Source: Schizochytrium sp. TIO01
Taxonomy: Eukaryota > Protista > Bigyra: Labyrinthulomycetes
NCBI GenBank assembly: GCA_004764695.1
Contig: SMSO01000006.1
Span: 1,007,859-1,071,858, forward strand
Direction of reading: 5' to 3'
DNA: 64,000 bases
Shown here: positions 83 through 36,848 of the stretch, one piece after another
Layout: every line of letters begins with the position of its first letter
Position numbering within the stretch: the stretch's first letter is position 1
Notes under the pieces: generated by a model
What the model was told of the DNA's origin: nothing
The model's input: only the letters and a program-made list of their open reading frames with translations
Database searches by the model: none
Translations under genes and position numbers: made by a program

Positions 83-1107
83 GTTATATGACACAGGAAG
101 AAAACACCTGTGAATAATCAGATTAGTTCATTCACCACAATTCTGTGAGGAGAAGATGCTTCGTGAGGATCCGAAGATGAAGACAGCGCCCCTAAGGGTG
201 CTTTGGAGATGAAAGAACTGCGTTGGGAGAGCCAGATGCACTTGCTGCATCATATTGTGAAAGGCAATTGGAGTCAATGTAACTTTTAGCTGGTGTACAA
301 GATCCTGATTGACGATTGTTCTGACATTACCAACAAAATGCTCTGTGAGGCTACTTATGACAAAGAAGCTATCTATCTAACAGTGATAATACACCCATTT
401 GCTCCCCGAGCGGCATATTGCTTAGACAAAATTATCAAACCTCTGATAAGCCTTAACCTTATATCAATTAAATCTCACATCTCAGTTTCTAAATTTTACA
501 AGATTCGTCTACAATTCGCCTTGTTTATCCCAGATCTGGTATATTCATAGACATCTGTGCGCTCACGATTTGTTGAGGTCGAAAGCAAAGCGATTTTATG
601 CATATTGGAATGACATGTGTGGAAGAGGTCTATTTTTAAATAGGCCTCTATAGCAGGTTTAGCCCCTTTTTAAACTCCTTTAGGCCTCTTTGGGATTTTG
701 AGAACTCTGGGCGAGACACGATTCCCTGCGTCTCGACTTTCGCTTTCTCGTGCTGCAAACTACGAACTCACTGAGCAAGGTCAGATCCATAGAAGCGCTG
801 GCCTACCTTGTTGAGACCAAGAGGAGGTCCCGTCAAAGACTACGCCTAGTTTGTTTTGTGATAGCCACGGACGCTGCAGCGTCTCGATTCGCTTGAGTGT
901 GCTTGCTTTCCCAGCGCGTAGCTCGCGGCAAAGACCATTTCCCTGTCCTTTTTGAACCTCGGTTAGAGATTAGAACGTCAATAAAGTATAAAAAGGAGAG
1001 AGGATCGCATTTCCCGCGGCGTGAATTCACTGCATCTTCTATTGATCTTGGCGGAAACCTATTTCGCCTAGTTGCTTCAAAGTTAACTTGGATTTGAGTT
1101 ATCAGAA

Positions 1108-4100
1108 ATGCTGCAAGCCTCAAGGGTTTGCGTATCCGGACTCGGTGCCCAGCACCGAGGTGCCGCTCCTGAGGCTGCCTGGGAAAATTTCCAAGTTAAA
1201 GTTGCAAATGCGCCTCTAGCCAAGGTTGAGAGGGTAGACCCTCTGGCCTGCGTCTATGTGTCAGTGCAGTCTTTGCGAAGGTTATCAATGATTAGCAATC
1301 GTTGGGCAGAGGTTTCAACAGTAGGCAACCGCAATGCTTTCGTCAGGGTGATTGCATCGCGAGCTCTCGACGAAGACGACGAAGAAGATCACAGTGAATC
1401 TAACAATGCCTCGAACCAGACCCAAGGAAACCTTGTGGTGATGAATCCTATGATGGCCTTCAACTTAGGTCTTCGCCAAGGCACCACGCACACCATTCGT
1501 ATGCGCCGGCGATTCTTTGGTGCAAATGACTCTCCTCCTATTGCTGCGCGTGTTACAATTGCACGTGTGCGCAGCCCTGCCTCAAGTGGGCATGCTGAGT
1601 ACGGTCCTGCCCTCCGGGAGTACTTCAGCATTCCTAGACTTGTGCGCAAGTACGATGTGCTTGCAATCCCAATCCGCGATGTCCTTACTCTAGAGGGCTG
1701 CGAAAACCACGGTGACAATGACCTTGATGATGACGAGATTGAGTTAACAGCAGGCAGCATGGGCGAGAGCGAAGAGGTTACCGGAGCTGCTTCAGGAGAA
1801 AGCACTCTCGAAGCCTTTGAAGATTACCCGTCAGACTTTACAGTGCTTGCAGACGATGCACTTGATGCGCGGGGACGTGAACTTCCCGTGCCACATTCAG
1901 TTGTCTACTTTCAAGTGATTGAGTTGTCACGTACATTGGAAGGCGCTCGTACTGATGCGAGCTCAGTCAGTGCAGCGTCCACAAACGGTGAATCAGATAC
2001 GGCATCTGAAAACGTGCACCCAGACCAAGACGAGGGAATGGTTGTGGATGGTGTTGGTGGGAACACCATGCTCACACAAGCCGGCGCTGTCAACACTCGA
2101 GTGCCTGATGCTAAGCAAATCCTTGAGTTTTCATTCGCCGAGTTCGCTGTTACAGACAAGCATGCGTTACACGAATTGGAACAAAAGGATGAAGAAGAGC
2201 AAGGTCGTCGGGCCGCCACCTCTACTGCACAACAGGAACTCTTGAAGGTTTTGCGTGTGGGAACTAATCCCAGACTCATGAAGCGTCTCAAGCGTCTCTC
2301 TGTTATGCTACATGGTGCTAAGGGCACTGGCAAGCGCCACATGATTAGCACAGCAGCATCAGAACTAGGCTTTCATGTTTACGAGACCTCACTCACCCCT
2401 TTACGTGGACTGCCCGAGGACCGTGCGGCAAAGAAACTTCGCCACATTCTCCATGAAGCCACCCAGGTATCACCCTGTATTATTCATTTGCGTCATCTAC
2501 AAGCCCTAGCTCCCTTGGCACAGGGTTCGGAGAAACCTGACGATCCTGAGCAAGTTGCCAATGTACTGAAAAATTTCTCACACCGCAATTGTCTTTTGGT
2601 AGCAAGTACACAAAGCGCAGACGAAGTCCCGGCTGTAATTCGTGGATGCTTTACTCACGAAGTTTCTATTCAGGCTCCCGACAAGGATGGTCGCCTTGCG
2701 ATTTTGGAATACCTCACAGATAGTAAGATCCGCCTTGCATCTGACGTTTCGCTGGAATCCCTTGCGGTTCGCACGGCTGGACGCACTGCCAATGAACTTC
2801 GTGCGCTTTTTGCAAATGCCGCATGCCGTGTGGCTAATGAAGCTGCACAAGTTGAGGCTGCAGAAGCTCGCACCGTGCCTCAGCTCGAAGAGGCCTGGTC
2901 GAGCATCCTTACGTCGAATGGTCACGGCCCGGCCTCTGTGGAAACTACTAACCTCGCATCGCCTGCATCTGGCATTTATGGAGGATCTACAACGGAAGAA
3001 TCTGCTGAAGGTGGTGCTGTGGTTGAGCTTACGCAGAAGATCATCGACGAGGCCCTCGAAGCACTTCCGAGCGCTGCAGCTATGGATATTGGTGCCCCTA
3101 AAATCCCCCAGGTCTACTGGAAGGATGTGGGCGGCCTGGGCCATGCCAAAGACGAAATCATGGACATGGTCCAGCTTCCGCTGCAGCATCCAGAACTCTT
3201 TGCCTCTGGAATGCGTCAGCGCAGTGGCATTCTGCTTTATGGGCCGCCTGGTACGGGTAAGACTTTACTGGCCAAGGCTGTAGCTACAGAATGCAATCTC
3301 AACTTTATCAGTGTAAAGGGTCCCGAGCTTCTTGATATGTACATTGGTGAAAGTGAGCGTAAGGTGCGACAAGTCTTTGAGACAGCTCGTAGTGCCAAAC
3401 CCTGTGTTCTCTTCTTTGATGAGCTTGATTCTCTGGCGCCCCAAAGAGGTCGTGGCGCAGATTCGGGCGGTGTTATGGATCGTGTGGTGTCGCAGCTCCT
3501 GACTGAAATTGATGGTATGCAAGGCAATGCTGATGTTTTCGTCATTGGTGCTACTAACCGTCCCGACCTTTTGGATCAAAGTTTGCTGCGTCCTGGTCGT
3601 TTTGATCGTCTTATTTACCTTGGTATATCTCGAGACCGCGATGCTCAGCTTAAGATTGTTAAGGCTCTTTCGCGAAAGTTTGTTATGGACGAGAGCGTCG
3701 ATCTTGATGCGCTTGTAGACAGGTGTCCATTCAATTTTACAGGTGCGGACTTTTATGCCCTTTGCTCAGGCGCCATGGCAAATGCATTGCAACGTCGCGT
3801 GCGCGAGATTCAGGAACTCATCCGGCAACACCCTGATAGCACACTTACTGCACGCAAGTACCTATCTACACTTGCTGAGAACGAGCTTCAGGTTACTGTA
3901 AAGATGGTGGATTATCTGGACTCTCTCCAAAACACAGTGGCATCTGTGTCAGAAGACGAGATTCGTCACTATGAGGCCTTGCGAGATAAATTCTCTAGCG
4001 GTCAGCAGCAGCAGCAACAACAGCAGGAGAATGAGGAACAGGAAGAGGATGGTCAGCAGCGGCAGCAATTGGAAGAGAAATATGCGTATATGAAGGGGCA

Positions 4101-4368
4101 TGATAAGCATCAGAAGTCTTTGGAAGGAAGTATCCCCCAAGCAAACGGATCCTCTGGGCATCATCTGAACGGCAACGGCCTTGCACATGATATGATCCGC
4201 CACTGCCCAAATTGCAAAGCTCCTACCCTTAAGGAAGGTGGCTGCGACAAGATGCAATGTCCCGCCTGTTCACAAGAGTGGAGTTGGGATACTCAAGAAC
4301 CTGTTGCTGAAGAAGATCTTGAAGGAATCAAGATATCAACCGAATCATTCGTGTATAAAAAATTATGA
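1108..4368 (+). CDS. PEX6: Peroxisomal AAA+ ATPase PEX6 with C-terminal Q/E-rich linker and Rcat/IBR-like zinc module
   Basis: Intronless 1086-aa ORF. D1 has Walker A GAKGTGKR and a degenerate Walker B (IIHLRHLQAL). D2 has GPPGTGKT and VLFFDELDSLAP. PEX6-typical motifs IGAPKIPQVYWKDVGGL, GGVMDRVVSQLL and CPFNFTGADFYALCS are present, as is the N-terminal ARVTIARVRSP...ALREYFSIPRLV. Confidence 0.95.
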   Translation: MLQASRVCVSGLGAQHRGAAPEAAWENFQVKVANAPLAKVERVDPLACVYVSVQSLRRLSMISNRWAEVSTVGNRNAFVRVIASRALDEDDEEDHSESNNASNQTQGNLVVMNPMMAFNLGLRQGTTHTIRMRRRFFGANDSPPIAARVTIARVRSPASSGHAEYGPALREYFSIPRLVRKYDVLAIPIRDVLTLEGCENHGDNDLDDDEIELTAGSMGESEEVTGAASGESTLEAFEDYPSDFTVLADDALDARGRELPVPHSVVYFQVIELSRTLEGARTDASSVSAASTNGESDTASENVHPDQDEGMVVDGVGGNTMLTQAGAVNTRVPDAKQILEFSFAEFAVTDKHALHELEQKDEEEQGRRAATSTAQQELLKVLRVGTNPRLMKRLKRLSVMLHGAKGTGKRHMISTAASELGFHVYETSLTPLRGLPEDRAAKKLRHILHEATQVSPCIIHLRHLQALAPLAQGSEKPDDPEQVANVLKNFSHRNCLLVASTQSADEVPAVIRGCFTHEVSIQAPDKDGRLAILEYLTDSKIRLASDVSLESLAVRTAGRTANELRALFANAACRVANEAAQVEAAEARTVPQLEEAWSSILTSNGHGPASVETTNLASPASGIYGGSTTEESAEGGAVVELTQKIIDEALEALPSAAAMDIGAPKIPQVYWKDVGGLGHAKDEIMDMVQLPLQHPELFASGMRQRSGILLYGPPGTGKTLLAKAVATECNLNFISVKGPELLDMYIGESERKVRQVFETARSAKPCVLFFDELDSLAPQRGRGADSGGVMDRVVSQLLTEIDGMQGNADVFVIGATNRPDLLDQSLLRPGRFDRLIYLGISRDRDAQLKIVKALSRKFVMDESVDLDALVDRCPFNFTGADFYALCSGAMANALQRRVREIQELIRQHPDSTLTARKYLSTLAENELQVTVKMVDYLDSLQNTVASVSEDEIRHYEALRDKFSSGQQQQQQQQENEEQEEDGQQRQQLEEKYAYMKGHDKHQKSLEGSIPQANGSSGHHLNGNGLAHDMIRHCPNCKAPTLKEGGCDKMQCPACSQEWSWDTQEPVAEEDLEGIKISTESFVYKKL

Positions 4369-4893
4369 GGGGAAGAGACAAGACCCCAATATTTGAACGA
4401 ACAAAAGCTTGTCAACATCTTCCTTCATTCCCGTTTAGACCCAACCAGGTTTACTAAACCACCACTTTTGATTTATCGTAATTATTAATCCTACCTTCGA
4501 TTCATTTATAGAAGTTCGTTATCTTGTTTCAACTTTCAGTCAAAATACTTAGTTCTTCTTGAAATTTGAGTATCTTAATTTTAATATGTATTGACTGCTG
4601 CCTTCAAGGCATTGCATATATCTGTCACTCAGCCTTTCGACTGAGAAGAATAACAAAAGAAAGGCATTTGTAAAAACATTCAACAGATTGGGCGCAAGGG
4701 CTGCAGATAGAAGTGACACATGAATTCAAAGAGGCCAAAGCAGAAAAAAAATTGTATATCAAATATTGGCAAATATGACCATAATTACCAGATAGTAGCT
4801 GTCGCGGTGGCCTACACCGGGCAGCCTTGAGTGAAAATTAAGGTTGATCGCATCAGTCGGCTTGTACTGTTTTCACAAGCAAACTCTGTGTCG

Positions 4894-5271
4894 TTAAGGG
4901 TTCTCCTCCTCCGGGAATTTGCGACGCAAGCGAGTGAGATCTTCGGCCTCGTGCCTGTAATGTTTGCACTGTGCCAGAGCATTTGTGTAGTCCAAGAGGG
5001 TCCCCGAAACGCCTCCAATAGCCCAGTAGAGCTGCGATTTGTACTTGATCGAGAGCGGAAGACCTACAAGGATACCTCCAAGGCAGAACTGCCAGTGCTC
5101 CAGCAAGCAGGTGCCATACTTCAGGTTAGTGTCTGTGATGGCCTTCTCAAGGTCCTCGCGAGTTGCGAAGTCGCGCGCCACCATCGGCACATGAGGGATC
5201 GAAGCTGCGGGAGCAACGCCGTCCTCAGGTTTTACCTCCTCAGGCATTATCTTTGGAGCTGCGTCAGCCAT
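4894..5271 (-). CDS. Small protein with two short hydrophobic Gly-rich helices (putative organellar membrane protein)
   Basis: ATG in aacATG context, host-like codon usage, 125 aa. Hydrophobic segments FCLGGILVGLPLSI and LYWAIGGVSGTLLD are flanked by Cys residues. Convergent with PEX6. Confidence 0.75.
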   Translation of the reverse strand: MADAAPKIMPEEVKPEDGVAPAASIPHVPMVARDFATREDLEKAITDTNLKYGTCLLEHWQFCLGGILVGLPLSIKYKSQLYWAIGGVSGTLLDYTNALAQCKHYRHEAEDLTRLRRKFPEEENP

Positions 5272-6331
5272 GTTGTAGAGCAGCTAGTTTCGCTTTGCTA
5301 GCTTAGCTCAGTTTTCCTTTGCTTAGTTTGCTTTGCTTTGTTTGCTCTGCCTAATGTCTGTGTCTACCTGATTAGGTAAGGTATTGCTTAGTACGAAAAG
5401 TTACTAGGTAGGCACTAGCTACTGTTGATTGAAGATGTGCATTTTGAAGTGGCCACATTTGGTTTCAAGTCTACTGCTGGTTGGTAAGGGGCTGGGAACG
5501 CACTATAGCAACCATGAAAACTTCAGGGAAAGTATTAAGGCATTCGCATACTAGATATGTTTGTTCAGGGTGTCGACGCGTTTAGAATGTGTGCATGGAG
5601 TCACTAGGATTAATTAAATTTATCACAAATGAAATTAAAGGGAAGTCTAGGAAGTGAAGAAAATGCACAATCTTGGGTTAATATTTGCCTTCTATATACC
5701 TACTCACTGAGATGATTACTTTTGCTTCATTGCTTCAAGCTGGATCAAGGTTTGAGTGCATTGAAATACAAGCTAGAAAGCTTTCAAATGAATCTGACTC
5801 AAAATGCTAACTTACTTTTAAAATTTGATACAAGGTTCAACATCATGCAAATTGGTGTAGATGAGAGCTAAAGATGTTTTCCACCTTCACTGCATCTATT
5901 CTCAGGAGACTGTCAGGTCTTTTTAATAAATAAAAACTAACATTCTTTAGAAGTTTGTTAAGGAAAAGTTTAGACATCGCCTTCTGTATAACTTCACTAT
6001 TTGTAAGTCACACTTCATTTACCTGTTATCTTTAATTCAGCCTCAACACAATTCTACATCTGCTTCAAGATGACCTTGTTATTTAACCAACACTTATAGC
6101 GCTGGTCAACACGTAGTTCGTAGTTTAGAGTGGTAAAACACTGAACAGAACTTTTACAAGTATATTTCTGACTTGGTCCATCAAAACATTTGCACGTTCA
6201 GCTTTGAAGATAGAACAATAAAGATCCTCCCTCAGTGGGTGTACATAACCATTTCTTGAACCTATCGTGCTATGAAGAACCAAGGTTGATGCATTTTTGT
6301 TTCTAATCTGAACAAAGTGCTTTTCCTGCTT

Positions 6332-8138
6332 GAGAGGGGGTGGTTATCTTGCGAGTTTTTATTGGCGAGGGCTGTTAATATTGATCCAAGTTACCAGAAT
6401 AAGAATATTTCCTAATATATAATCATGTAATATATAATATTTGTGATTTTGGAGATCCTGCCAAAAAAACTCGCGCTTATAGTATACCCCTCCAATTTTC
6501 TCGCCATATTAATACTACGGCTGAAAAAAATGGCCAGTGGCGTATGACGAGAATATAAAGTTTGGAAGTTTAATTCTTTTTGACCTCCAAATACTCTTTC
6601 CTCACAAAGAAAATTAACCATTATATTAGTATGCGTGTACTGTGGGGAAGAGAAGACTTTGAGCTATAATTTACAAAGTCTATATGAATTTTGTTAATGG
6701 TGAGAATAGTATTTATGCAGTGGTAGTAGAGAGGAGACACCACTGGGCAATGAAGTAGAGGGATCCACTGGGTTTCATTTTTTAAAATTAAAAAGAGATT
6801 TCTGGGTTATTTCGAAGAGAATGGACAATTATGTCAACTTTACTTATTTTCATGTGATTAAAAGTATAATACTAGTATCTGTCAATGGAAAACTGAAGGT
6901 TTCCCAAGCTCTCAAAGTTACCTATTCTGCATAGGGAATGAGCTGTTTCCTTTTGCTTTTATTTGTTAAAATGAAGCACTTTGATTTGACGTATTTGCAA
7001 GGAAAGCTGTTTCATTTATTATCTGCATGTGGCTTTGGCTTCAAAGGAGTTATCTATCTGATAAGTAAGAAAGGTCTTAAACTTTGATCAAAATCCGCAA
7101 CGCAGGTCAACACATACCCGGCTATAATTGCTGAAGAGCTGATCTGTCACCTCGGGTATATCTTATACCATGTCTTCTGGACTTTTCTTCAGATTTGATA
7201 ACTTCGAAGATGCATTTCTAAGATGGCCTATAATGGATTTGCACGTTCAATTTATAAGAAAACGAGATAACATATCATATCAGTCTGAGCCTTTCGGCTA
7301 TTCCAGCCTCTCCTACTTTGCAACCCGAGTCAATCTGAAGTGTACCATCCATGAATCTATCGCCTGGCGCATTATTGTTTCCAAATTTTGAGCCGAGTTG
7401 TTCCAGCAAGACATTAAGGGGGGCATGTAATCACGTTTTACGTGTTTTAGGTCAGCTAATATGGATTTCACTTACCAGAAACCGAATATTTTACTTATAT
7501 AATATCTGCAGTAATGAATGTCCAAAAACTTAATTTTCTAGGACACGTAACTCTTGCCTAGGGTACACCCCTCCATCTTTACGTCTTACCTCCTTACTGT
7601 GTAAAGGTTTACCTTGGGGAGTCTTACCACGATATAAAAGTCTGAAGTGTCAACAATTTTCATACACTTCTGCCATGACTTTGAGGATGATTGTATGTTC
7701 GATTCTCAAGAGAGGATCCGCCATTTCAGGCAAACTTCTGTACATGTTTATGACTCTTTTGTTAAACATTTCGAGCCTATCACTGTTGCAACACATAAAT
7801 TTATTAAAGTTTGCTGTTTAGCGTTATAACTGAACGATATAAGTGGGGGTATGGTATGAGTGCAAACGTGACGTGTCTGATAATGTTAAAACATATTACA
7901 GGAATTCGAATATCAACATCGTAGAACTATATGGTTTCTCCAAAGAATCTACAAATTTACAGAGACTTGCCCAAAAACCGAGCGCTTAAAATGCCCCCCC
8001 ATGTTTTCTGCCGCGAGAATACTAGGGAGAAAAAGTGTCCCAGTGGTGTAAAATGGGGGCGAACAAAACTTGAAGGGTAATTCTATGTTTACTGCCGAAT
8101 ACTACTGCTTTTTCACAAAGAATGTCGATTATATAATG
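6332..8138. repeat. Diverged dispersed repeat family: direct copies about 6452-6630, 7549-7650 and 7962-8138, plus an inverted partial copy at 6332-6371
   Basis: Copies align by eye through colinear anchors gagaNNNgccaaaaa, gcgctta, cccc, aatacta, gaaaaa, ccagtggYgta, taattct, aatact, tcacaaagaa and attatat. The reverse complement of 6332-6371 (cctcgccaataaaaactcgc...cccctctc) matches the start of copy A. Confidence 0.7.
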
Positions 8139-11100
8139 GACGGGGCAAGATACATCACCGCTGGGTAGATTAGACTTTCGAACTTACATTAAACTCTCTT
8201 TCTGAATTTTGTTTACGCGAATTAAAAAATTATACCGGTGGGACTTGACAGGAGATAACACTGAACAGCAGATAACACTAAAAGGTGATACGAAGGGTCT
8301 GTCTACTGGCACCGCATTCTGCAGAAAGAATAGTATCTACCAGTAGGCTCACTGTTTGAGAAACCGAAGTACAATAAGCACTCCTGATGAAAGTGAAGGG
8401 ACACTAAGTCTGCAGGGTTTTCAGCCAATTTCTTTTGTTTGAGTGTGTGACAAAGCAGCTGCTTTTCATCAAATAGAGTCCAAGAGGTGCTTTCGTATCG
8501 ACATCGTCATTAGCCAGTGGACCGCAGCTCTCAATTCTTCATAATTTCGTAAAACATAGGCTTGTTCTAAATGCAAAACACTGTCACACAAGTTTGAAAC
8601 CGCTAATCCTACTGCTAGATACCTGCAATCTGCATAATTTAAAAAAAAAATGTATTACGTGTAGCCTTGATTAGCAACGTTCTGTAGAAATATGTCTCCC
8701 TCTGTTTACATCTAGATAAGCTCCTGTGGGCAGCCCTCTCTTGGCGATCGTTGCAACCTGAGAATTGGATTGCCCACTACAAAATGCAATAAAAAGCAGC
8801 ATGAAAGTTAGGGTGTGCGAACTGAAGATTGCTTTCGTATTAGCTACTGATCTACCTAGAAAAGCGAAGCAAGCCAAACACCCAATCCAAGGAAATTGAG
8901 ACACGAAGTGACTACTGGTCTAGCTCTTGAGTGTGCCCAAGAATTGTATGAGCAGGCTAAATTGCTCGCACTACCAGCTTGGGAACGCTCGTCAGAATGC
9001 CAAGTCAGATTATTGAAGAGAAAATTGATGATGTGCAATGTGTTATACCTCTACTCTGAATATTTTTTTGGACTCTTGTATCTAATTGTTCCAGTTATTC
9101 TTATCTGAGTTGCCTTTAATTCTAAAATTTCATGGGAGACAAACTACTTGAGATAAGGTTGATCTGTTAATTTAAGAAACACTTTACGGATTTTGTGAAA
9201 TGTGGGGACAGCTCTTTCTGCTCGTAGATTGCAGTATTGGCTATACTTCACATAATAGGCCAAGCAACCTACACATTTCCTTTGTGCGGTGCTTGTACCA
9301 GTTGGACCAGGTCAGATTTTGCATTAGAGTAAAGCTGAAGATATTTCAACAGGAACAATAACGCTGAAAATGATTGTAAAGGCAAGTTCAAATTATAGAA
9401 ACAAAAAAATCTTGAATTCAGTTATATTGAGGTACTTGTGAATGCTCATTTCAGCAGTTGCTTTATAGTCAAATATTAGCATCTCAATGGTAGCGACTCT
9501 TTACCACATTATAAAATTGAAAAAGCAAGAATGCCTAATTAGCTCTCGGCTTCCAAGCTATTTGCAAAAGACTTGTCGGCACATCGTGCCATGCATGGGT
9601 TTGCGCTGCTAAGAATTACAAAAGGTAGTACTCCTATCTAGCTAGAGCCACAATCGAGAACGGCTCTAAACAGAACACCACTCCAGAACGTTCTATCGGT
9701 CAGGCACTGTTCCAGCACTGAGTCCATTGAGTCTTCGAGTAGCAATGAGAAGTAGTTTATTTGGCTTGAGCTCTCCGACCAGTGGGAGTTGGCCATGCTC
9801 GATGCAAAGTTGTGGGTAATACATACATAGCAAAAGGTGAGTACTTCTTCTCAAAAGTTAATTTAATTTACGATTAAAGCAGTGTCAAATTGAAGGAACA
9901 GTCTGTGCCAATTCTGATGAGGCGACTTTAGAGTGATTCAACAATGGAAATACGTTCGACTTTTACATCAGCAGCAATCCAGGAACAATCTGCAAAGGTG
10001 GCAGCAACGAACGAGGCAATATTCGAGTATTGCCCACTCCCAAAGTCTTCCACTGTACAACAAAATGATGATGAGCATTCGCTTAGGTACCTAGTACCTA
10101 TTACCTTCGGCCATTTCTCTTCGATTTGTGATCTCCCTTCATCAACTACTACATATGTACCTACTGACCTATTAGTAGGTACCTAGGTAGGCACAAGGTA
10201 TGCGCATGCACTTTGCTACACTATGCGGGGGTACTATAAACCTTTCAGTGCACATATCTCTGTATTTCTCTTGCTATAAAACCCCAAAGGTTTTGAGCTT
10301 TGCTTGCCAAGTGGACTATTTCTAGACACTCTAACGGGGGTATTTTAATCATCACAGTCGCAAATTTTTATTCTTATTTAATTAAAAAGCCTTCAACTTG
10401 AAGTTATTTGTATTTTGTTTAATGTACTTTTATTAAAAAAAAATGAAAAAGAGCTTTTTTTTTTTTGCTTTTTTTTATTTTTTAAAATAGGCGAATAAAG
10501 TAGATATTGTCAAAGTTATTAATCAGCTTGTTACAAATTTATTTTTATTAATCGCGCCAGTGGAATTGTTTCTTTGTTCGTACAAGAAAGCTGACCGTCT
10601 GACCTCGAAGAGGCAAGCGTCGCAGTATCCTGAGATTTCAAAGAGCGCCTTAGCCACAAACAGTCTTTGCACGTTAATCACTCGCTGGCCGATGCTTCTG
10701 ATGCGCGAGGACTCAAAGTTTGGCTCCTCCTCTTCTTCTTCTTCTTCTTCTTCTTTTTCATGGCAGTTTTGGCGTCCCATGTAATTCCTACTATGGCGTC
10801 CTCTTACTAGTACGTTTTAACACACTTATTTGCGTGATTCCGTCTAAAAAGGTTCTCCGATACTGCGGCTGTTTCTGCGGCAGAATAGGCCACTGTGCGA
10901 GGGTATAGCTCACTGTATTGGGCGGGGGCTGCAAGTGAGGTATACTTCCCGCAAGTGGGGTATACTTGCGCCCTGTCGAGGGTCGTTTGTTTCACTTTCA
11001 CAAAGTAGGCTCCATTCGTGCAAGTGAACTAAACTCCTATACCCTTGTTTAGCACATTTGTTTTACTTGCAGAGGGCTGAGCCGGGTGGTCTGTCTCCTT

Positions 11101-13062
11101 TTTTCCCTCCCCCTCTCTCTCCACTGGCGCCCGCTTTGGAGGAGGTGATTTTCTCTGACTTTTTCGTTTTCTCGTACTTTAAAAGTTGAAAATCTCTTTT
11201 ATAGGACTCTTAGCCATGATAATTAAATTTGATACAACATCACTATTATTGTTTATTATTATGACCATAATTATTATTATTTTCGAAAGACGCATGTTTT
11301 TAATACTCATTTACTTATTTATTCATTTCTATTCTCTAACTTGGACTGAAAGGTACTAAAACATGAAAAGCTTTTCCAGGTTAAAAAGTGCCAACTGGCG
11401 ACCTGTGAAAGAGACACTCAAACAGACAGAGTTAGCTCATTGCTTTCATCTCGAGGCCAAGCACTCGCGGCCTTATCTTCTTATCGCCAGCCGGAATAAA
11501 TACACGCTGAAGCAAGTTGAAGCACGCTCTGAGTGAATGGCGACGCCCGTTTCCACCTATTCGTTCCAGTCTAATGAATCCAACTTGTCTTGGCAGCTGA
11601 AGGTCGTTGACTTATGCCATTCTGCCCTCGTGGTCTCTCCTTTCAGATTTTCCCATCTGCTCTATGGGTAGGAACTGCCCTAGGGCACCTTTAGCAGAAG
11701 CCTAGCTGGACCTAACTACCATCCATAGCGCGTTTTATGTCGATCCTTCTCATTGCGGCGTATTCGTTTTCAAGACGGTGAAAGCAAATGCAAACACAGC
11801 AAATATCTGGGCACCCTGACGGTCCTTCACTCAAGAGTATCCTTCACAAGAGCGCTTGCTTATCGGAAATCACGCGAGACTTTGCATCATCGCGATCGAA
11901 GTTTCATTTAATCTAAATCTAAATCTATTTATATGATATTCAGAGGCCTATCTCTCTCTATATATATATTTCTTTTGTCAATTAAATAATAAAGGTTGCA
12001 TATCTGCAATGCCACTAAAAGCACTCCGCTTGGAGATGTAGTAGGCATACATAAAGTGCAGAAATACAGACTGATTACTGAGCTTTCAGGCTTTAGCCAA
12101 GTTAAAGCGCCTTTAAATTAAATAAACTCAGCACGTACGCACGAAGTTCTGAAAGTGGAGGGAAAATGGGTTTTTCGGTGGCCCCTTTTAGTTAGTATTT
12201 TAGTATTTTGTGCGATAGGAGGTAAAACATCGAAACGGAGGAAGCAAAAAGATGCCGTGGCTTTCATTCTGCGCAGGCAATGCAAGCAAGTGCCAAAAGC
12301 CGAGGAAGCCGCTTTCTTTCAGCTCTGCCATTTGGGCCACACTCCAGCAACGCACCGACTTTCTTGCGCAGCTCCGCGCTATCCTTGCGATCGTTGCTTC
12401 ATCCGCAATGCCAACATTTCAAGCTTCGCTTCTGGGCACTCTCAATGGTCAGTCTGTCAGTCAGTGATTGGAGCAGTGAGTTAAACGAAACCTTTTAAAC
12501 TCAACAATTATTCACTCATTCATCATTCCTTTCGCTGCTTAGCGAAACGGTAGCTAGTTTTAGCTACTTTGGTGCCTAGCCCCCATTACTGTACACTAGA
12601 AAGGAGGAGAATCAATATAAAACTTTTATTTCAGAATAACAACTATCGAAGGCTTCGAGTAGTAGGTAGTTAGAGCTTTCTTTCTATCATGAGAATGGAG
12701 AACTTCTTTCGTGTCTTTCTATTTCCTTTTATTATTATTTTTTAATAGTTATTATTGTTATATATGTATTTAAAACTTTTAACTTATTGAAAAATATTCT
12801 TAAGTTAAGAAAGAAAGAAAGAAAGAAAGAAGATAGCCTCTTGGCAGCTAGGCACTAGGTACTGTATACTCCTAGCGTTGTTTTTCCCTCCTTTGATATT
12901 TCTTTTTGCCATTTCCCGAATGCACCGGTTCCTGTGGTCTGCCTCCGCCTCCATTTTAGTTTGGTTGGCAAAAGCGGAGAGCGAACCCTCAATTTCAAGC
13001 AAGCTGGCAAGCTGGCAAGCTAGGGATCTCTCTCCATCGCAGCCAGGCCGATCAGCTGGTAA

Positions 13063-13722
13063 TTAGTCAGCCAACGCTGCAGCTTTGAGCCTGAGCTTAT
13101 GCCCTGAGTTTACAAATAATGGGAGGTTTTTTTTGGTAGTGCCTTTGGCCTTGGTTGCGGATTTGCACGGAGGGTGGGACCAGGTTCCTTGGAGGTTCTG
13201 CGCATGTTCTGTGTTCAGCCTTCTTGCTTCTTGTTGTAAGGCTTGCGGCACTTGCCCATCTTCAAGCTGCTCGCGCTCGTGCTCTTGGCTGTTGGGAGGT
13301 GCTGATACGGTGCCGTTGATGGCCTGAGTGGTGTTCTTCCCCACGGACCGCTGGAGAGGATAGCGCGTGTTCGCTGATAACCCGTTTGCCTTGAGCAATG
13401 TTCTGCTCTGGCCAGTTGTGCTCGCAGGTGCGCCCAAAAGGCGAGGGAGTGCTACCGTTTGGCCTATCAATTCCCGCTCCAGTCCTAGGAAATCCTTGGT
13501 TGCAAGGCATTGATTATGACATAGAGGAGCAAAGTTCGAGGTCTCTCGCCTCGAAGCTGCATTTGGGTGGTGGGATATCTCGACACCTTCTCCAAACTCG
13601 ACTGAGACTCGGCTGCCTCTGTCCTCGAAGAAGAATAATAATAATAATAAGAAGGCAATGCTGCTGATGATAAACATCGCTTGCAAACTCGAGGTCAAGT
13701 CGTCTTCAACTTCGACCTGCAT
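13063..13722 (-). CDS. Hypothetical protein (about 219 aa from first ATG; doubtful)
   Basis: Long GC-rich ORF in an otherwise non-coding region with no recognisable domain. The hydrophobic run is partly encoded by an (AAT)n microsatellite. Confidence 0.3.
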   Translation of the reverse strand: MQVEVEDDLTSSLQAMFIISSIAFLLLLLFFFEDRGSRVSVEFGEGVEISHHPNAASRRETSNFAPLCHNQCLATKDFLGLERELIGQTVALPRLLGAPASTTGQSRTLLKANGLSANTRYPLQRSVGKNTTQAINGTVSAPPNSQEHEREQLEDGQVPQALQQEARRLNTEHAQNLQGTWSHPPCKSATKAKGTTKKNLPLFVNSGHKLRLKAAALAD

Positions 13723-14464
13723 CACCTCCGCGGTGTCCCTTTGTCCCGTATCTGCGCACACCCTTCTGAGACTCAGGAAAAGAAGTAATATCACAAAACT
13801 CTTTGACGAAGAGTGAGTGAGTGACTTCGGTCCCCTTTAATGTGGTTGGCCTTCGACGGCGTATGCTTACTCATAGACAGTGCGGACATGACGCAGAAGC
13901 CATTGCGGTCCCAGAGGTTATCTGTCTTTCATCATGATCTGCAGCGAAAAGCATTATTCGATAATGCCACTGACACCTCTCTCTTCACGCGTATTGGTTT
14001 TTTTGTTTTCCGCTTTTTTTCCCATCTCGAAACAAAGCCAAACAAGGAACACACAAAACTCTTTATAAAAACTATTACACTACTTCAATTCCTCATGCAT
14101 AGGAGCCTTTGGCTACTTCTTAGCTAGGCAGCACTCATTTTAATTATTTCTTTTACTTTTCATAGATAAATTAATTGACCATTTGATCTCTTTAATTTTA
14201 TTAAATTAGGAAAATAAAAAGTTAAAAAGCTAAAAAGCTAAAAATCTAATTTAGCCCTTTAGTAGTAGCCTAACAATAGTAGCCAAACAACAAAGAAAGA
14301 ATGTTGTAAAGACAATGGCTGCTTCTGCGAAAAGCTCGCGTGGGGCAGCGTGGAATGCCGCCAAAGACGCAGTTCTCTCGGCGTGAGAGGAGGAAAACGC
14401 CTGAAAGCACCCCTTCGCACGCAGGAGCAGCGGCCCCTCTCCTCTCCAGCGCAAGCTAAGGACC

Positions 14465-14492
14465 CATGACATGACATGACATGACATGACAT
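14465..14492. repeat. (CATGA)n pentanucleotide microsatellite
   Basis: catgacatgacatgacatgacatgacat read directly. Confidence 0.9.
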
Positions 14493-15182
14493 AGTTGCGC
14501 CTAATCTGCGTGCTTCTTCGCCCCCCTGAAAGAGTGACTAGCACCTCCTAGGCAGGTGCCTAATGGGTCGATCACAGCAAGAGAAAGAGCATTTGTTTAT
14601 TTATTATTTATTATTTATTTATTTATTTATTATTGCTTATTTGCTTATTTGCTTATTTTTTGTTTTATGTTTTTTCCATTGTATACATAAAGTGCAGATA
14701 GCAATAGCACTTATAAGATTGAGTGGAACTAGGTTGAAAACGAACAGAGGCGGCTAATTGGTTGTACAGAACGTGTCTGAGCTTACTTCGATGTTATCTC
14801 CTACTTTCTGCGGCGTCTTCTTTATTGCGCGTTGTCACCGTTTTGGGGAGAGAGAGAGAGGTATGTTGTGTCATGGTCTTTCGGGTCTCCTTGCTGTCTT
14901 TTGATATCGCTAGTAAAGGTGCTATCATTATCTTTGGAGTTGTATTATTAGCATTACTGCCACGTACTAGAGCAATTCGTTTTTAATTAATTGAATTAAA
15001 GTTTAAATTAAAAGACAGATTTAACACACGTACATACAGTATTTTCAATTGTATTTTTTTTCAATTAAATAGAAAAAAAGGAAGTATTGGACTTTTGTTT
15101 TCATTTTTCATTTTCAAATATTTTATGTATTTTTTTATTCTTTTTCAAAGTGAGTGAAGAAGCAAAATCAATGAATTAGAAA

Positions 15183-15185
<3 letters not shown>

Positions 15186-15224
<39 letters not shown>

Positions 15225-15295
15225 GGCCTATTATATACATATGAGAGAGACAGAGACGGAGACAGAGACAGAGACAGACAGACAGACAGACAGAC
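15186..15295. repeat. (AT)18 followed by GA/GAGACA/GACA compound microsatellite, upstream of the 15558 gene
   Basis: Read directly from the sequence. Confidence 0.95.
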
Positions 15296-15557
15296 TTTAA
15301 TCTGCGACCGTGCCGTGCATAGGCAGGGTCTCTTTCTTCGCGGTGCGTGTGGCGGAGGCAGCGAAAGCCCCCAGCCCCGGCCGGTTCTCCCTCCCCGGCC
15401 CTCGGTTGGCCTTTGGCTGCTGTTCGAGGTCTTTGTTACGGCTTGTCCATATTTTCCTTCTTTTCTTTGCTCTCTCTCTCTCTCTTTGGTGACTAGTTTG
15501 CTCTTCTAAGGCCCCATCCATTCCCTCATCGATCGTGGTGGTGTCGTCGGCAGCGCC

Positions 15558-19831: not shown

Positions 19832-20782
19832 TCATCGCCTCCTGCGGGACTTCGCACTGGGTTCTTGAATAACAAGATGATCGCCGCCACCTTCAGGCAA
19901 TGTAATAGTTCCGACGTTTAACCACTTTAGTAGCTTTTGCGCTTCCGGATAACGTATTAGTACAACGGGGACATGAATCTTCTTCCATTCTGTGGCCAGA
20001 TCCTGATGCGCAAATCCCTGTGAGAGTCGATCTGAGGGGCGCTGACCCATCAGGGGGCCGCAGTCAAAATTCTCGTCGCATCCGCCCTCTACTTCATCAA
20101 CAATAATAACTGCAGAAGCGCCGGCCTCTTGCACTCGAAGCGCCTTGTCCAGCAAGGTCACTCCTCCACCACGAAATACTAGTGTAAGATGATCCTTGAC
20201 TTGATGGCCATTAATTATTCGATCTCGACCATCATTGGGAACGGCAACAGCAATGCGACCGTCTACGTGATACTTTACAGGTGCATAATGCGCATCCCAT
20301 ATGTCAATCAAAGACCCAGTTTCGTGTGCGTCCATACAATTGACGCAAAACGTCAAGCCTTCTGCAAACATCAGAGAGACCTGCAAGCCAGGAATATAGC
20401 AATGTGGCTCTCCATTGCCTTTGATCTGCTCTGTGCAGAGCTTCTCATTTTCTAAACTCTTCCGTCGCTCAATATTGCGCTCTTCTTCACTCATTGTCTC
20501 GATCCGCTGCCGAGCTTGAAATACCTCGAACTCTTCACGTGTTTGGAATGCAGGTTGATACTGCGGAATACCGCGATCGATTGCCTCATGGTGAAACGAA
20601 CTACCTGGCATCCTTCGCTTTGTTTTGCTATGATGGTGATGGTGATGATGGCCAGCTGCTCCATCAACGTTTAAGACTGCCCAGTCTGACAAACATATTA
20701 ATGACCACAGCACCAGAAAAACGCGTAGAGAGAGCACGTGCGGGCTGCGGCCTCGTGGCGTCACAAACCTCCGCCGCCTCAT
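19832..20782 (-). CDS. Stand-alone protease-associated (PA) domain protein with N-terminal signal/anchor (PRADC1-like architecture)
   Basis: Hydrophobic segment VFLVLWSLICL and a His7 tract. PA motifs: AVPNDG..IINGHQVKDHLTLVFRGG-VTLLDKALRVQEAGASAVIIVD...IHVPVVLI. Confidence 0.85.
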   Translation of the reverse strand: MRRRRFVTPRGRSPHVLSLRVFLVLWSLICLSDWAVLNVDGAAGHHHHHHHSKTKRRMPGSSFHHEAIDRGIPQYQPAFQTREEFEVFQARQRIETMSEEERNIERRKSLENEKLCTEQIKGNGEPHCYIPGLQVSLMFAEGLTFCVNCMDAHETGSLIDIWDAHYAPVKYHVDGRIAVAVPNDGRDRIINGHQVKDHLTLVFRGGGVTLLDKALRVQEAGASAVIIVDEVEGGCDENFDCGPLMGQRPSDRLSQGFAHQDLATEWKKIHVPVVLIRYPEAQKLLKWLNVGTITLPEGGGDHLVIQEPSAKSRRRR

Positions 20783-32179: not shown

Positions 32180-34225
32180 CTAGTTGCTTTGCATGTTGCT
32201 AAGTTGCGCAATTTGCAATGGAAGGAGTTCTGCGAGCTCTTCGCAAAGTTTCTTTTCCTGTGAGAAAGCTTGGGCATCAGGGCTGAGTCGTTCTCCAGCT
32301 AAAACTTTAATTCGTTCAGCATATTTCAATTGTTCTTTCAGGAACAAAATCCTGGCTGGAATTGACCGAGGATCCGGAGGCACCATCATTCGATAAGCGT
32401 GCATAATCCAAAAATTTGCGTTCAGGTATGGAACAGAAAACTCCTCAGATGTCTCCTCATCGCCTTGTTGTTTATCTTTCGCCTCCGCCTGCTCAAACAT
32501 CGTGCAGAAATGGCTGTAGTATTTAATTACCTTCATTGCCCACTGATTAACCTTTTTGATAAGCCCGGGCGACATAGAGAGCCCTCGCATTTCCTTTGAG
32601 GAACGATCTACATTTTCAGTCTTATCTTGTTCATCTAATATAATTCGAGCAATATTTCCAAGCTCAAAAGAAATTTCTTGATGCTCTTTGAGATATACCT
32701 CTGGATTTAGCTCGTCAAGAAGACCAGCAAGTAACTTTTCACGTCGAGTATGCATAGCAATAAAGCGCTTGTGGTCAGGCTCAAAAACACTGAGATAGTT
32801 ATATAAATCAGATTGAGATCGCAGAATCTGCAGGTGAATAGTAACGTATCCGTCGAGGACATAGAAGCGTTTTGATTGAGCAAAGCAAGTATTCGCTATA
32901 TTGAACAAGTCGCGAGCTGATTCAAACGAGAGAACATCCTGAATGGCAGGAAGATCAATGTCTTCTTTTTCACGGTTATCCAAGGTCATGTTGAGCTCAA
33001 AGTGCTTTTGCTTAGAGGACTCCAGCCAAGCGTCTGAGAGAAGACCTTCGCGATCGACTGCATCGAATTCGTCGTGCGCCATTTCAATGCGCCGGAGAAG
33101 CGAAGCTCTTCGAAGGATTTGCGCGTAGAGGTCGCCACGAGACCGCTGAAGATCAGCGCGCAGAAGCTCATACTCCTCTCCACTTTGTTCGTTCTCACTA
33201 ATTTCATCAATAGCACGACCTGCGGCACAGATACAGTGAGCAGCCAGCCGGGTTTCTCCCTGTTGAACGTAGAAAGCAGAAATGCCAAGCGCATGCTTTG
33301 ACCAGGTGAAGGCATCATAACTATGTTCAAAGTTGCGTTGGCGATGCAAAGTTTGTACGCAAAGATTAGCTGACTCTTCAGCGTTACCAATAGCTGCTTC
33401 TACCTGAGCGAGGAAGAACAGGGTGCTTGTGTACTCTTGGAGATCATTTTCACTGCCAAAACGATTTTCTGCAAGAGCACGTGCCCGGCGAAGATACTTG
33501 ATTGCACGAGATGCACCTTCTGCACGGTGCGACCAGAGAATGCTCAAGTAATTATAGCCGCTCACGAGCTGAAGCAATGCACCATCGTCAAGGTGCAGAA
33601 GATCCAGATTACGTTCAAATGCCATAGGCTCTTTGTCTACCTCCTTTGCGGAAATTGCATCTTGGTCAGGTCTAGCATCATCAGAATCAAATGAATTTGC
33701 AAGCATAGGCCAAACATCTGCCCCTTCGAGGAATTCGGCGCCGCTGCGAATACTGCGTTCACCATCCGTGTTCTCTTCCGTCAAGTACATGTTGATGCCA
33801 ATTCGAATTTCTAGCATGGCCATATCTCTCTGAGCGTGAATGTCATGCGAAGCTGCGCGCAGGTTCTCACATGCATCTTGCAAAATTTTGCGAGCGTTGT
33901 ATTTGGATTTATATGGCTCAGATTCGTCACACTCCTCAAACTCGGCTTCTTCCGCAGCCTGCACTGCGGTGACGTAAATCGTAGTGCGTAAGTCATCCAG
34001 ATTTTTGGTCTCTCCGGCGTGCTCTGGGGTTTTCTTTTTGTTCGCTCCATTGCTACTGTCATGATTCTCGCTCGTGACGTTCGCATCTTCACTATAGGCA
34101 CCCTTCTCTTTATCTGCTGCGTTCTCGCTTGCCCGTTCTGACGGCACCTTGCCATCCGTACATTCCGCAGCAGGCCCCGGCGCAGCAGGCGGCGTTTGAG
34201 CAGCGATGAGTGGATCTTCAGACAT
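32180..34225 (-). CDS. KIFBP: KIF1-binding protein (kinesin-binding protein, KBP)
   Basis: Family motifs EPYKSKYNARKIL, YTSTLFFLAQV, CVQTLHRQ, FESARDLF, FYVLDGYVTIHLQI, LNPEVY...QEISFELG and EKKLCEELAELLP. Confidence 0.93.
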   Translation of the reverse strand: MSEDPLIAAQTPPAAPGPAAECTDGKVPSERASENAADKEKGAYSEDANVTSENHDSSNGANKKKTPEHAGETKNLDDLRTTIYVTAVQAAEEAEFEECDESEPYKSKYNARKILQDACENLRAASHDIHAQRDMAMLEIRIGINMYLTEENTDGERSIRSGAEFLEGADVWPMLANSFDSDDARPDQDAISAKEVDKEPMAFERNLDLLHLDDGALLQLVSGYNYLSILWSHRAEGASRAIKYLRRARALAENRFGSENDLQEYTSTLFFLAQVEAAIGNAEESANLCVQTLHRQRNFEHSYDAFTWSKHALGISAFYVQQGETRLAAHCICAAGRAIDEISENEQSGEEYELLRADLQRSRGDLYAQILRRASLLRRIEMAHDEFDAVDREGLLSDAWLESSKQKHFELNMTLDNREKEDIDLPAIQDVLSFESARDLFNIANTCFAQSKRFYVLDGYVTIHLQILRSQSDLYNYLSVFEPDHKRFIAMHTRREKLLAGLLDELNPEVYLKEHQEISFELGNIARIILDEQDKTENVDRSSKEMRGLSMSPGLIKKVNQWAMKVIKYYSHFCTMFEQAEAKDKQQGDEETSEEFSVPYLNANFWIMHAYRMMVPPDPRSIPARILFLKEQLKYAERIKVLAGERLSPDAQAFSQEKKLCEELAELLPLQIAQLSNMQSN

Positions 34226-35669: not shown

Positions 35670-36848
35670 CTACTCGATAGCGCAAAGGCGCGCAAGGAGT
35701 CCGGTAAGCTGCAGATTTGATTCCATGCCCTCAAGAACTCGCATATGCGTGATACCAATTTCGCGAATGAAGCCCAACTTGCGTGATTCCGGCATTTTCA
35801 GTGCCTTGCAGACCTTGAAGAATGTGTTGATCAAATCAGCGGCTGCATAGCCATGTTTGTAAAGAGCATCTAACTTCTCAGAAGCAGCCGTGATGTCTCC
35901 CTTTTCGCAGTCTTGGAGGATACCAGTGACCACACCGGGATGGGGCTGATCACATACTTTGAATACGTTGACATCAGTTACAGAGCCGAAACCTGCATGG
36001 GTGGACTGAAGGTTGTTCAAGGCATTACGCATATCTCCTTCCGCAGAAAAGATAATCGCCTCGAGACCTTTGTCGGTTGATGCAATTTTCTCTTGTGTGC
36101 AGACATATTTGATGCGTTCAAGAACATCAGCATCGCTCAAGCGAGAATAACGCAAGATGGCACAACGAGACTGAATGGGCTCGATAATCTTAGAAGATGT
36201 GTTACAAGCCAAGGCGAAGCGCGTAGTTGATGCATAAAGCTCCATGGTCCGACGCAATGCTTGCTGAGCAGCTGAAGTCATGCTGTCAGCCTCATCGAGA
36301 ATGATAATCTTGTGCGCGCCCCGAGGTAAGGTCACCTTCTTTTGAGCAAAAGACTTGATTTTGTTACGCACAACAGCGATACCACGGTCATCAGAGGCAT
36401 TGAGCTCAAGAACAGCCTCCTTGTAAGCAGGTCCGAGCATTTCGTGTGCCAATGCCAAAATACTGGTTGTTTTACCAGTACCGGGCGGACCAGCGATGAC
36501 AATGTTTGGACAGTTACCCTGCTTTGCAATTACAGCCAGACGCTTAACTGTATCCTGGTTACCCACAATATCCTCAAGCTGTTTTGCACGCGTGGTCATT
36601 ATAGAAAATTGTCATGATATGATACGTTAGTCTCTGTGTTTGGCATTCCAGTGGCCTACAGCAGGTTCCGCGAGCTCTTTGCTCAGGCAGGGAGTGTTCA
36701 ATAGCTGTAAAGACTCGGAAACAAGAAAACCTACCTTGCGAGGTCTGTACTTTTCAACCCAAGGCATTTCTGGTGGCCTCATTGCCATTTTTGCAAAACT
36801 GCTGCTCCCAACAGCGCTGGAGGAGGAGGACGACGACGAAGAGGCCAT
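35670..36848 (-). CDS. RFC2: Replication factor C small subunit (human RFC2 / yeast Rfc4 type); exons 36848-36735 and 36578-35670
   Basis: The GTAGG...AACAG intron at 36734-36579 (156 nt, GACTAAC branch point at 36632-36626) joins [10 protein letters not shown] to LEDIVGN, giving 340 aa. Motifs include [45 protein letters not shown] and [10 protein letters not shown]. Confidence 0.96.

Follow-up and report, generated by a model that had tools for sequence, protein, structure and literature searches.

A C-terminal Rcat/RING2-type zinc finger with an invariant catalytic-position cysteine on thraustochytrid PEX6, a candidate ubiquitin acceptor

Why does a peroxisomal AAA+ motor run on past its second ATPase domain into a finger that resembles the catalytic end of a ubiquitin ligase? 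The question is raised by a gene on the forward strand of the window (the whole 64,000-nucleotide stretch of Schizochytrium sp. TIO01 DNA that was analysed). The gene is intronless and occupies a single ORF at 1108..4368; its frame is free of stops from 1087 to 4368, and with the ATG at 1108 as the start the protein has 1086 aa (P0001). From its ORF, Pfam matches, fold and orthology, the gene is PEX6. An N-domain region (aa 142–331, 1531..2100) matches Pfam PEX6_4th at 33.6 bits against a cut-off of 27, and Pfam adds two AAA stretches. The first AAA domain, D1 (2299..2877, approximate limits from sequence and model), has GAKGTGKR as its Walker A and lacks an acidic Walker B, a degeneracy typical of Pex1/Pex6 (PMC5070193). 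D2 (aa 708–963, 3229..3996; sequence, Pfam and model) has intact Walker A and B motifs, a lid and a tail helix. The best fold match of the P0001 model is chain B of yeast Pex1/Pex6 (E 7.8e-56). Among named relatives, a protein of the thraustochytrid Hondaea fermentalgiana that UniRef names PEX6 comes closest, at 76% identity; for this orthologue, 7 of 10 Atlas rows are PEX6-named clusters. By orthology, P0001 would work in a PEX1/PEX6 hexamer that extracts Ub-PEX5 at peroxisomes.

No peroxin genes were recognised among the window neighbours of PEX6, which include, on the reverse strand, genes for a PA-domain protein (19832–20782), a KIF-binding protein (32180–34225) and an RFC small subunit (35670–36599). 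An ORF of 125 aa (4894–5271, reverse strand), which has hydrophobic stretches and matches no Pfam family, converges on the 3' end of PEX6 and is covered by contigs of the sequencing runs described below. The ∼10 kb at 5400–15300 are AT-richer and hold only one ATG-started ORF of at least 200 aa (13063–13722).

Beyond D2, the reading frame continues through a linker into a one-zinc finger of Rcat/RING2 type, 31 aa long (IRHCPNCKAPTLKEGGCDKMQCPACSQEWSW; aa 1030–1060, 4195..4287, forward strand). The finger has the first zinc site, CxxC...CxxC, in RBR spacing, with C1033, C1036, C1051 and C1054 as the predicted ligands. Between the two pairs lies C1046 (4243..4245), the Cys of a GGC motif, which lines up with the Cys that is catalytic in parkin, HOIL-1 and ARIH1. 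Cut out as a 41-aa tail, the finger passes the Pfam cut-off of 27 for both IBR_1 (31.6 bits, E 1.5e-7) and IBR_2 (27.2 bits); scored within the whole protein it falls slightly below (25.1 and 22.7), which may be the reason why annotations have overlooked it. IBR_1, IBR_2 and IBR were matched by all four PEX6 tails tested, for which generic zinc ribbons scored far worse (best E 0.0005–0.004 versus 3e-8 for IBR_1); NZF families were absent among the Pfam matches of PEX6 tails. A search of PDB sequences gave the RING2 segments of parkin, HOIL-1, ARIH1/2 and CUL9 as best matches and placed C1046 on their GGC/DGC Cys, which is the catalytic residue in the RING2 of parkin and HOIL-1 (PMC11317638, PMC11962058).

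The predicted fold points the same way. The finger model consists of four short strands in an IBR-like beta fold (mean pLDDT 76.7), and its top structural match is residues 408–449 of louse parkin (Z 5.4, rmsd 1.4, 40 residues aligned), where a Z below 8 may signal a mere common arrangement and 5.4 is modest for a domain so small. Foldseek on the 41-aa model ranked HOIL-1 and parkin RING2 first (E 0.01–0.02, with zero matches at E ≤ 0.001), and an Atlas feature search of the tail returned IBR_1/IBR_2 clusters at 0.92–0.95. In the full-length model the finger folds independently, with pLDDT at 69–79 and values below 50 for the preceding aa 995–1027. Pfam, the search of PDB sequences and the predicted fold all identify the tail of PEX6 as a finger matching RBR Rcat/RING2; its 31 residues are too few to name the donor RBR subfamily, and the match list is biased by the query profile. 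A chance zinc ribbon was rejected. The initial annotation had proposed, from the letters alone, that one uninterrupted ORF fuses PEX6 to an Rcat-type module, and on this point the three lines of evidence agree with it.

The close rival to a catalytic reading, itself quite possible, takes the finger for a pseudo-Rcat without catalytic activity, a small zinc ribbon that binds some partner (ubiquitin, PEX1, a deubiquitinase (DUB), an anchor in the membrane or the D2 of PEX6 itself), with GGCD kept as an element of the fold or of the binding surface. The fold class includes non-catalytic IBR fingers, the EMI1/2 ZBR and ubiquitin-binding NZF fingers, all of which rank below parkin RING2 in the structural comparison (Z 2.9–4.2, NZF near 3, versus 5.4). 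The anchor variant gains some appeal from the distribution of known anchors: PEX26-type anchors are reported solely from animals and fungi and APEM9 from plants (PMC8172628), and protist PEX6 may tether otherwise.

The finger stays in the transcript and is not spliced out. A near-identical transcriptome-derived protein, P0122 (sources mmetsp/eukprot, ORF type 'complete'), contains the whole of it, and contigs from all four sequencing runs examined cross from D2 over the linker into the finger with neither a gap nor a joint. That these runs are RNA is a guess, and none of the matching runs listed is on record as such. Runs X5, X11 and X19 cover the ORFs and have nothing at 4568–4698 or 5511–9269, a pattern that fits RNA libraries, although missing cover proves nothing. 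With a complete P0122 and bridging contigs, a spliced-out tail was rejected, which settles a check proposed with the initial annotation. Read-through or a mis-join of two genes was rejected as well, since the same architecture occurs in five proteins of differing sources. A finger-less PEX6 of the same cluster, P0123, was considered as an isoform and discarded because its sequence turns CDC48-like at a motif common to both. This transcript assembly follows PEX6 as far as the D2 sensor region and resembles CDC48 from there on, and is probably an assembly chimera that could mislead annotation; a loose end at 3567 in the run contigs matches its switch point.

The linker that leads to the finger (3997..4194, forward strand) is rich in Q/E and G/N/H, measures 66 aa (25–66 aa in orthologues), is unconserved, and is predicted to be disordered at aa 995–1027. 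Downstream of the finger, the acidic C-terminal tail (4288..4368) appears dispensable: orthologues end 2–9 aa past the last Trp. A G4324T allele, seen in one run and in P0002/P0122, brings the stop 14 aa early and yields a 1072-aa form with the finger intact; 4200 C>G and 4161 T>C are silent. The contigs of three runs (from three studies) end at 4493–4508, a weak hint of a probable 3' UTR at 4369..4508.

The finger is shared by some PEX6 proteins and missing from others. A homologue search scored 7990 candidates; the best 120 were mostly CDC48/VAT, and the 11 PEX6-like rows among them were taken. When proteins P0002–P0128 were scanned for the finger motif, it was found in 6 of 127, all of them PEX6 (P0002, P0003, P0006, P0007, P0122 and P0124). 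A profile search with the finger covered 1.84 billion representatives and gave 858 matches at E ≤ 0.001, of which the best 150 were examined; P0131, third best among the matches listed, is the C-terminal piece of one more PEX6 and includes the finger. Five distinct PEX6 proteins carry it (P0001, P0003, P0006, P0007 and P0131), Hondaea included, and seven of the 12 distinct PEX6 do not (P0008, P0011, P0013, P0015, P0016, P0038 and P0126, the last from Aplanochytrium). Tail-less metagenomic calls could be truncated at an intron; the transcript ORF of P0126 is complete.

In a tree computed from tail-less sequences (P0012, which shares P0126's cluster, being left out), the five tailed PEX6 and P0008 form one branch (support 96/98), and Aplanochytrium and two relatives lie outside it (support 100/99). 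Two changes are needed to place the presence and absence of the finger on this tree, and one gain followed by a probable loss in P0008 is the simplest reading. A clade of the five tailed PEX6 alone was not rejected (p-AU 0.168); the outgroup branches are long, and P0131 fills 13% of the columns. Scans of metagenome DNA found no further PEX6 locus in 617 matches with a single-sequence pattern, and an alignment yielded 2 of 415 matches, both RBR-like genes and neither PEX6. The PEX6–finger fusion is real, conserved, transcribed and lineage-restricted, occurring in a group of marine thraustochytrids. Precomputed Pfam labels place IBR_1/IBR_2 on three tailed PEX6, making the domain visible in databases, where it has apparently gone undiscussed: no published description of a PEX6–Rcat fusion was found in a search of chiefly open literature. 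The PEX6 passages of PMC8172628, PMC5070193 and PMC9265785 make no mention of such a C-terminal domain; the first of these describes PEX6 architecture as more variable than that of PEX1, its sampled stramenopiles being Phytophthora and Thalassiosira.

Conservation within the finger contrasts sharply with drift in the linker. The finger is 31 aa long in all five PEX6, at pairwise identities of 52–71%, whereas linker identity lies inside the shuffled range for 8 of 10 pairs. Twelve columns are invariant, namely the four zinc-site Cys, P+1, T+7, K+9, G+11, G+12, C+13, D+14 and W+27; the CxxC...GGC...CxxC pattern to be looked for in orthologues is thus conserved in the five, as is the longer K-x-GGCD. 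Among the 27 non-ligand columns 8 are invariant, and five of those eight make up the active-site loop (K+9, G+11, G+12, C+13 and D+14). Both Gly beside the Cys are kept in 5/5; in parkin, G430D, adjacent to the Cys, impairs transfer (PMC11317638). The position two after the Cys, where the triad His stands in 75 of the 123 relatives with equal spacing (among the matches listed), reads K, A, K, E and D, four letters in five proteins. The contrast between an invariant active-site loop and a drifting residue next to it was counted for Cys chemistry, and it is also what stands against a silent finger: a chemically idle surface Cys would be expected to drift like its neighbour, which it does not do in 5/5, and the invariant residues are concentrated on the catalytic loop. 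Retention of the catalytic-position Cys, noticed at the outset in P0001, holds in all five, making a ubiquitin-handling role a fair lead. With five sequences, an unvarying Cys is nevertheless modest evidence: 8 of the 27 columns outside the zinc ligands show no variation anyway, and the Gly-Gly turn may have a structural role.

Other parts of the finger are less faithful to its catalytic relatives. The initial annotation had the triad His as Lys, which is correct for P0001 and does not stand as a conserved trait; a functional replacement of His by Lys was rejected, the position being free. Lys and Glu occur there outside PEX6 too, as GGCDKM in L002 (a full two-zinc RBR) and GGCDEM in L001 (a one-zinc form). 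The triad Glu position holds E in 3 of 5 tailed PEX6. At the guide-helix positions −8/−7 the five read L/Y/D/S/T and A/V/E/P/I and are unconserved; the models have coil or at most three helical residues at this place, and in parkin the helix forms only on ubiquitin binding (PMC11317638). Position −3, equivalent to parkin T415, which contacts Ub L8/V70 (PMC11317638), is I/V in 5/5. The invariant T+7 is specific to the PEX6 tails, with Ile in 80 of 123 relatives (among the matches listed), and may mark a new interface, a point in favour of the silent finger.

The second zinc site is absent from the PEX6 finger: beyond the last Trp, none of the five tailed proteins has a Cys or a His. The best 150 of the 858 profile matches included 148 non-PEX6 proteins, of which 129 fitted the parsing pattern and 19 were dropped. 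Among these listed matches, the FCW-xxC ligands of the second site are absent in 109/129 and present in 20/129, numbers that are not a family frequency because the query profile favours one-zinc forms, and other ligands might substitute in some. Judged from these relatives, Rcats commonly occur in nature without the second zinc site, which is no sign of decay; the absence, rightly read in P0001 by the initial annotation, is not special to the fusion. Local profiles seeded from Pfam matches detected RING and IBR upstream of 23 of the 109 one-zinc forms, RING only in 25 and IBR only in 10; 31 have fewer than 120 aa upstream (many are probably fragments), and in 20, mostly Cys-rich, neither was detected. 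The protein ends within 20 aa of the Trp in 30 of the 109. A one-zinc Rcat downstream of RING and IBR in 23/109 (among the matches listed) was counted for a ubiquitin-capturing role.

Several of these relatives deserve mention in their own right. Thirteen RBR-like proteins (P0129, P0168, P0171, P0181, P0197, P0223, P0231, P0236, P0242, P0255, P0264, P0266 and P0272) have an Rcat of the form GCD[Q/H]..FSW and, where the second zinc site would come next, a conserved (H)NPHY/NPYY motif instead. In the 25 with RING and then a one-zinc Rcat, IBR undetected (P0137, P0138, P0140, P0198, P0204, P0246, P0256, P0263, P0278 and others), the arrangement is possibly a reduced RBR architecture, and in P0173, P0185, P0192 and P0196 the one-zinc Rcat stands ahead of the RING, reversing the RBR order. 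The window itself holds a 583-aa ORF (53405–55156, forward strand) that has Cys clusters resembling a RING and, at its C-terminus, an Rcat-like one-zinc finger (GCSSM, ending in FNW); the local RING profile matches it at aa 411–471 (E 4e-5), with no IBR and no Pfam family at E 0.05. It is a divergent RBR-like gene with a one-zinc form as in PEX6.

Set against these relatives, what is unusual in the PEX6 finger is an Rcat without RING1, IBR or a conserved ubiquitin-guide helix. Neither RING nor IBR was found upstream in any of the five tailed PEX6 by Pfam or the local profiles. Identity as an RBR E3 ligase was therefore rejected, and we regard the finger as an orphan Rcat on a motor. The same absences, together with that of the His, also favour a silent finger.

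Our preferred reading, to which we give a probability of about 0.38, is that the finger is a tethered ubiquitin acceptor, in which thiol exchange would move ubiquitin from the Ub-PEX5 thioester onto the invariant C1046. The initial annotation missed that the substrate of PEX6, Ub-PEX5, would itself be a donor that needs neither E2 nor RING1: PEX5 is ubiquitinated on a conserved Cys as a thioester, a reversible linkage from which ubiquitin is removed by uncharged E2, glutathione or a DUB (PMC10959387). As the PEX6 motor extracts Ub-PEX5, the disordered linker would keep the finger close to the exit face of D2; hung from D2, even a 25-aa linker would be enough, which by the general geometry of such rings would favour the exit face over the membrane face. 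C1046 would then strip ubiquitin off PEX5 by thiol–thioester exchange, with E2 docking and the His both unneeded, and the finger~Ub would be cleared by glutathione, water or uncharged E2. In this scheme the finger would be a built-in receptor-recycling (deubiquitinating) module, the catalytic domain of an E3 run in reverse. The full version, a PEX6 with its own trans-thiolating deubiquitinase in which an orphan RBR finger, freed of RING1 and E2, deubiquitinates the PEX5 Cys at the pore exit, is putative and, taken whole, unlikely.

Published work on RBR catalysis lends the capture reading some chemical plausibility. Catalysis has two steps, and the His serves mainly the second (discharge) in HOIP and HHARI and both steps in parkin; in HOIP and HHARI thioester formation is intact without it, and RNF216 is active lacking it (PMC7458406). 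In HOIL-1, too, the His is mainly for the second step, and H510A still discharges E2~Ub (PMC11962058). A kept Cys loop with a lost His fits a ubiquitin-accepting site that does not pass ubiquitin on to lysine. On the other hand, parkin H433A impairs transthiolation also (PMC7458406). Mutation of the guide helix cuts parkin transfer (PMC11317638), and in HOIL-1 this helix binds Ub Ile44 (PMC11962058), so that the unconserved helix of the five PEX6 counts against capture, as does a triad Glu in only three of them. Once PEX5 has been extracted, Ubp15/USP9X takes off its ubiquitin; binding of the DUB Ubp15 by yeast Pex6 speaks for capture, and the place of the known binding site, on the N-domains and not the C-terminus, speaks against it (PMC9265785). 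Receptor recycling must in general be independent of the finger, because seven related PEX6 lack it, P0008 inside the clade. The main points against chemistry are thus the unconserved guide helix, the small sample and a tail-less PEX6 within the clade.

A second catalytic scheme would run the finger forwards. The initial annotation suggested a route via E2 and a RING1-bearing partner in trans, and a split E3 of this kind could be loaded from E2~Ub through a separate RING1–IBR protein or the PEX2/10/12 RINGs and pass ubiquitin onto PEX5 or another peroxin. The retained catalytic-position Cys and Gly-Gly suit this relay as well, and transfer to a Cys acceptor such as that of PEX5 would dispense with the His. 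The architecture is flexible, with 25 RING-containing one-zinc Rcats lacking a detected IBR among the matches listed, and the finger of RNF213 functions without its RING (PMC11549300). The partner protein is putative, however, and the guide helix, needed by parkin for transfer from E2~Ub, is unconserved. HOIP and parkin act as monomers whose complementation mutants fail to rescue in trans (PMC7458406). With PEX6 membrane-anchored via its N-domains (PMC9265785) and a shortest linker of 25 aa leaving from D2, the reach to membrane E2 or RING peroxins would be marginal. We consider the relay improbable.

Lower still we place the idea that the Cys has another use, either as a switch that responds to redox state or releases zinc, or as a place where PEX6 itself is ubiquitinated for regulation, or that the finger is the passenger of an old fusion. 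Redox control via the PEX5 Cys has been proposed for the pathway (PMC10959387, PMC9265785), but a direct sign of such control is absent here. The probable loss in P0008 would suit a passenger, and 31 aa kept in 5/5 with 12 invariant columns beside a drifting linker would not.

If C1046 is active, as the tethered-acceptor reading proposes, an RBR catalytic finger can work without RING1 and IBR, and the fusion would offer a direct handle on two questions, the reason for ubiquitinating PEX5 on a Cys and the coupling of extraction with the removal of ubiquitin. Should the deubiquitinase version be true, ubiquitin would be removed in a new way, by an Rcat enzyme that at 31 aa and one zinc would be the smallest in nature. 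A mere binder would be a lineage-specific PEX6 adaptor, of moderate interest. The one-zinc Rcats common in environmental RBR-like proteins may matter equally, since the second zinc site seems dispensable in them.

Compared with known systems, the tailed thraustochytrid proteins share the N-domain region, degenerate D1, intact D2 and tail helix of PEX6/Pex6, and add 58–123 aa past D2 with the finger. With the Rcat/RING2 of parkin, HOIL-1, ARIH1/2, CUL9 and RNF216 the finger has in common the first zinc site, spacing, GGC Cys and final Trp, and it differs in having no RING1, IBR, His, second zinc site or conserved guide helix. One-zinc Rcats (P0133, P0154, P0167, P0199 and the window ORF at 53405–55156) share GGCD and an x-W that replaces FCW-xxC; among the matches listed, such relatives differ from the PEX6 finger in mostly keeping the His (68/109) and in having RING and/or IBR upstream (58/109), and a Walker A motif occurs in 0/129. 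The nearest parallel for an AAA+ protein is RNF213, whose RZ finger is likewise flexibly linked and one-metal with a free Cys, the proposed nucleophile of a RING-independent catalytic site (PMC11549300). RNF213 belongs to another AAA class, though, its finger to another family with a His base and forward E3 activity (PMC11549300), and no RZ match was obtained for the PEX6 finger. The job proposed here is that of Ubp15/USP9X and E2 in deubiquitinating PEX5 at or after extraction (PMC10959387, PMC9265785); these are separate hydrolases or E2s, whereas the proposed PEX6 module would be part of the motor.
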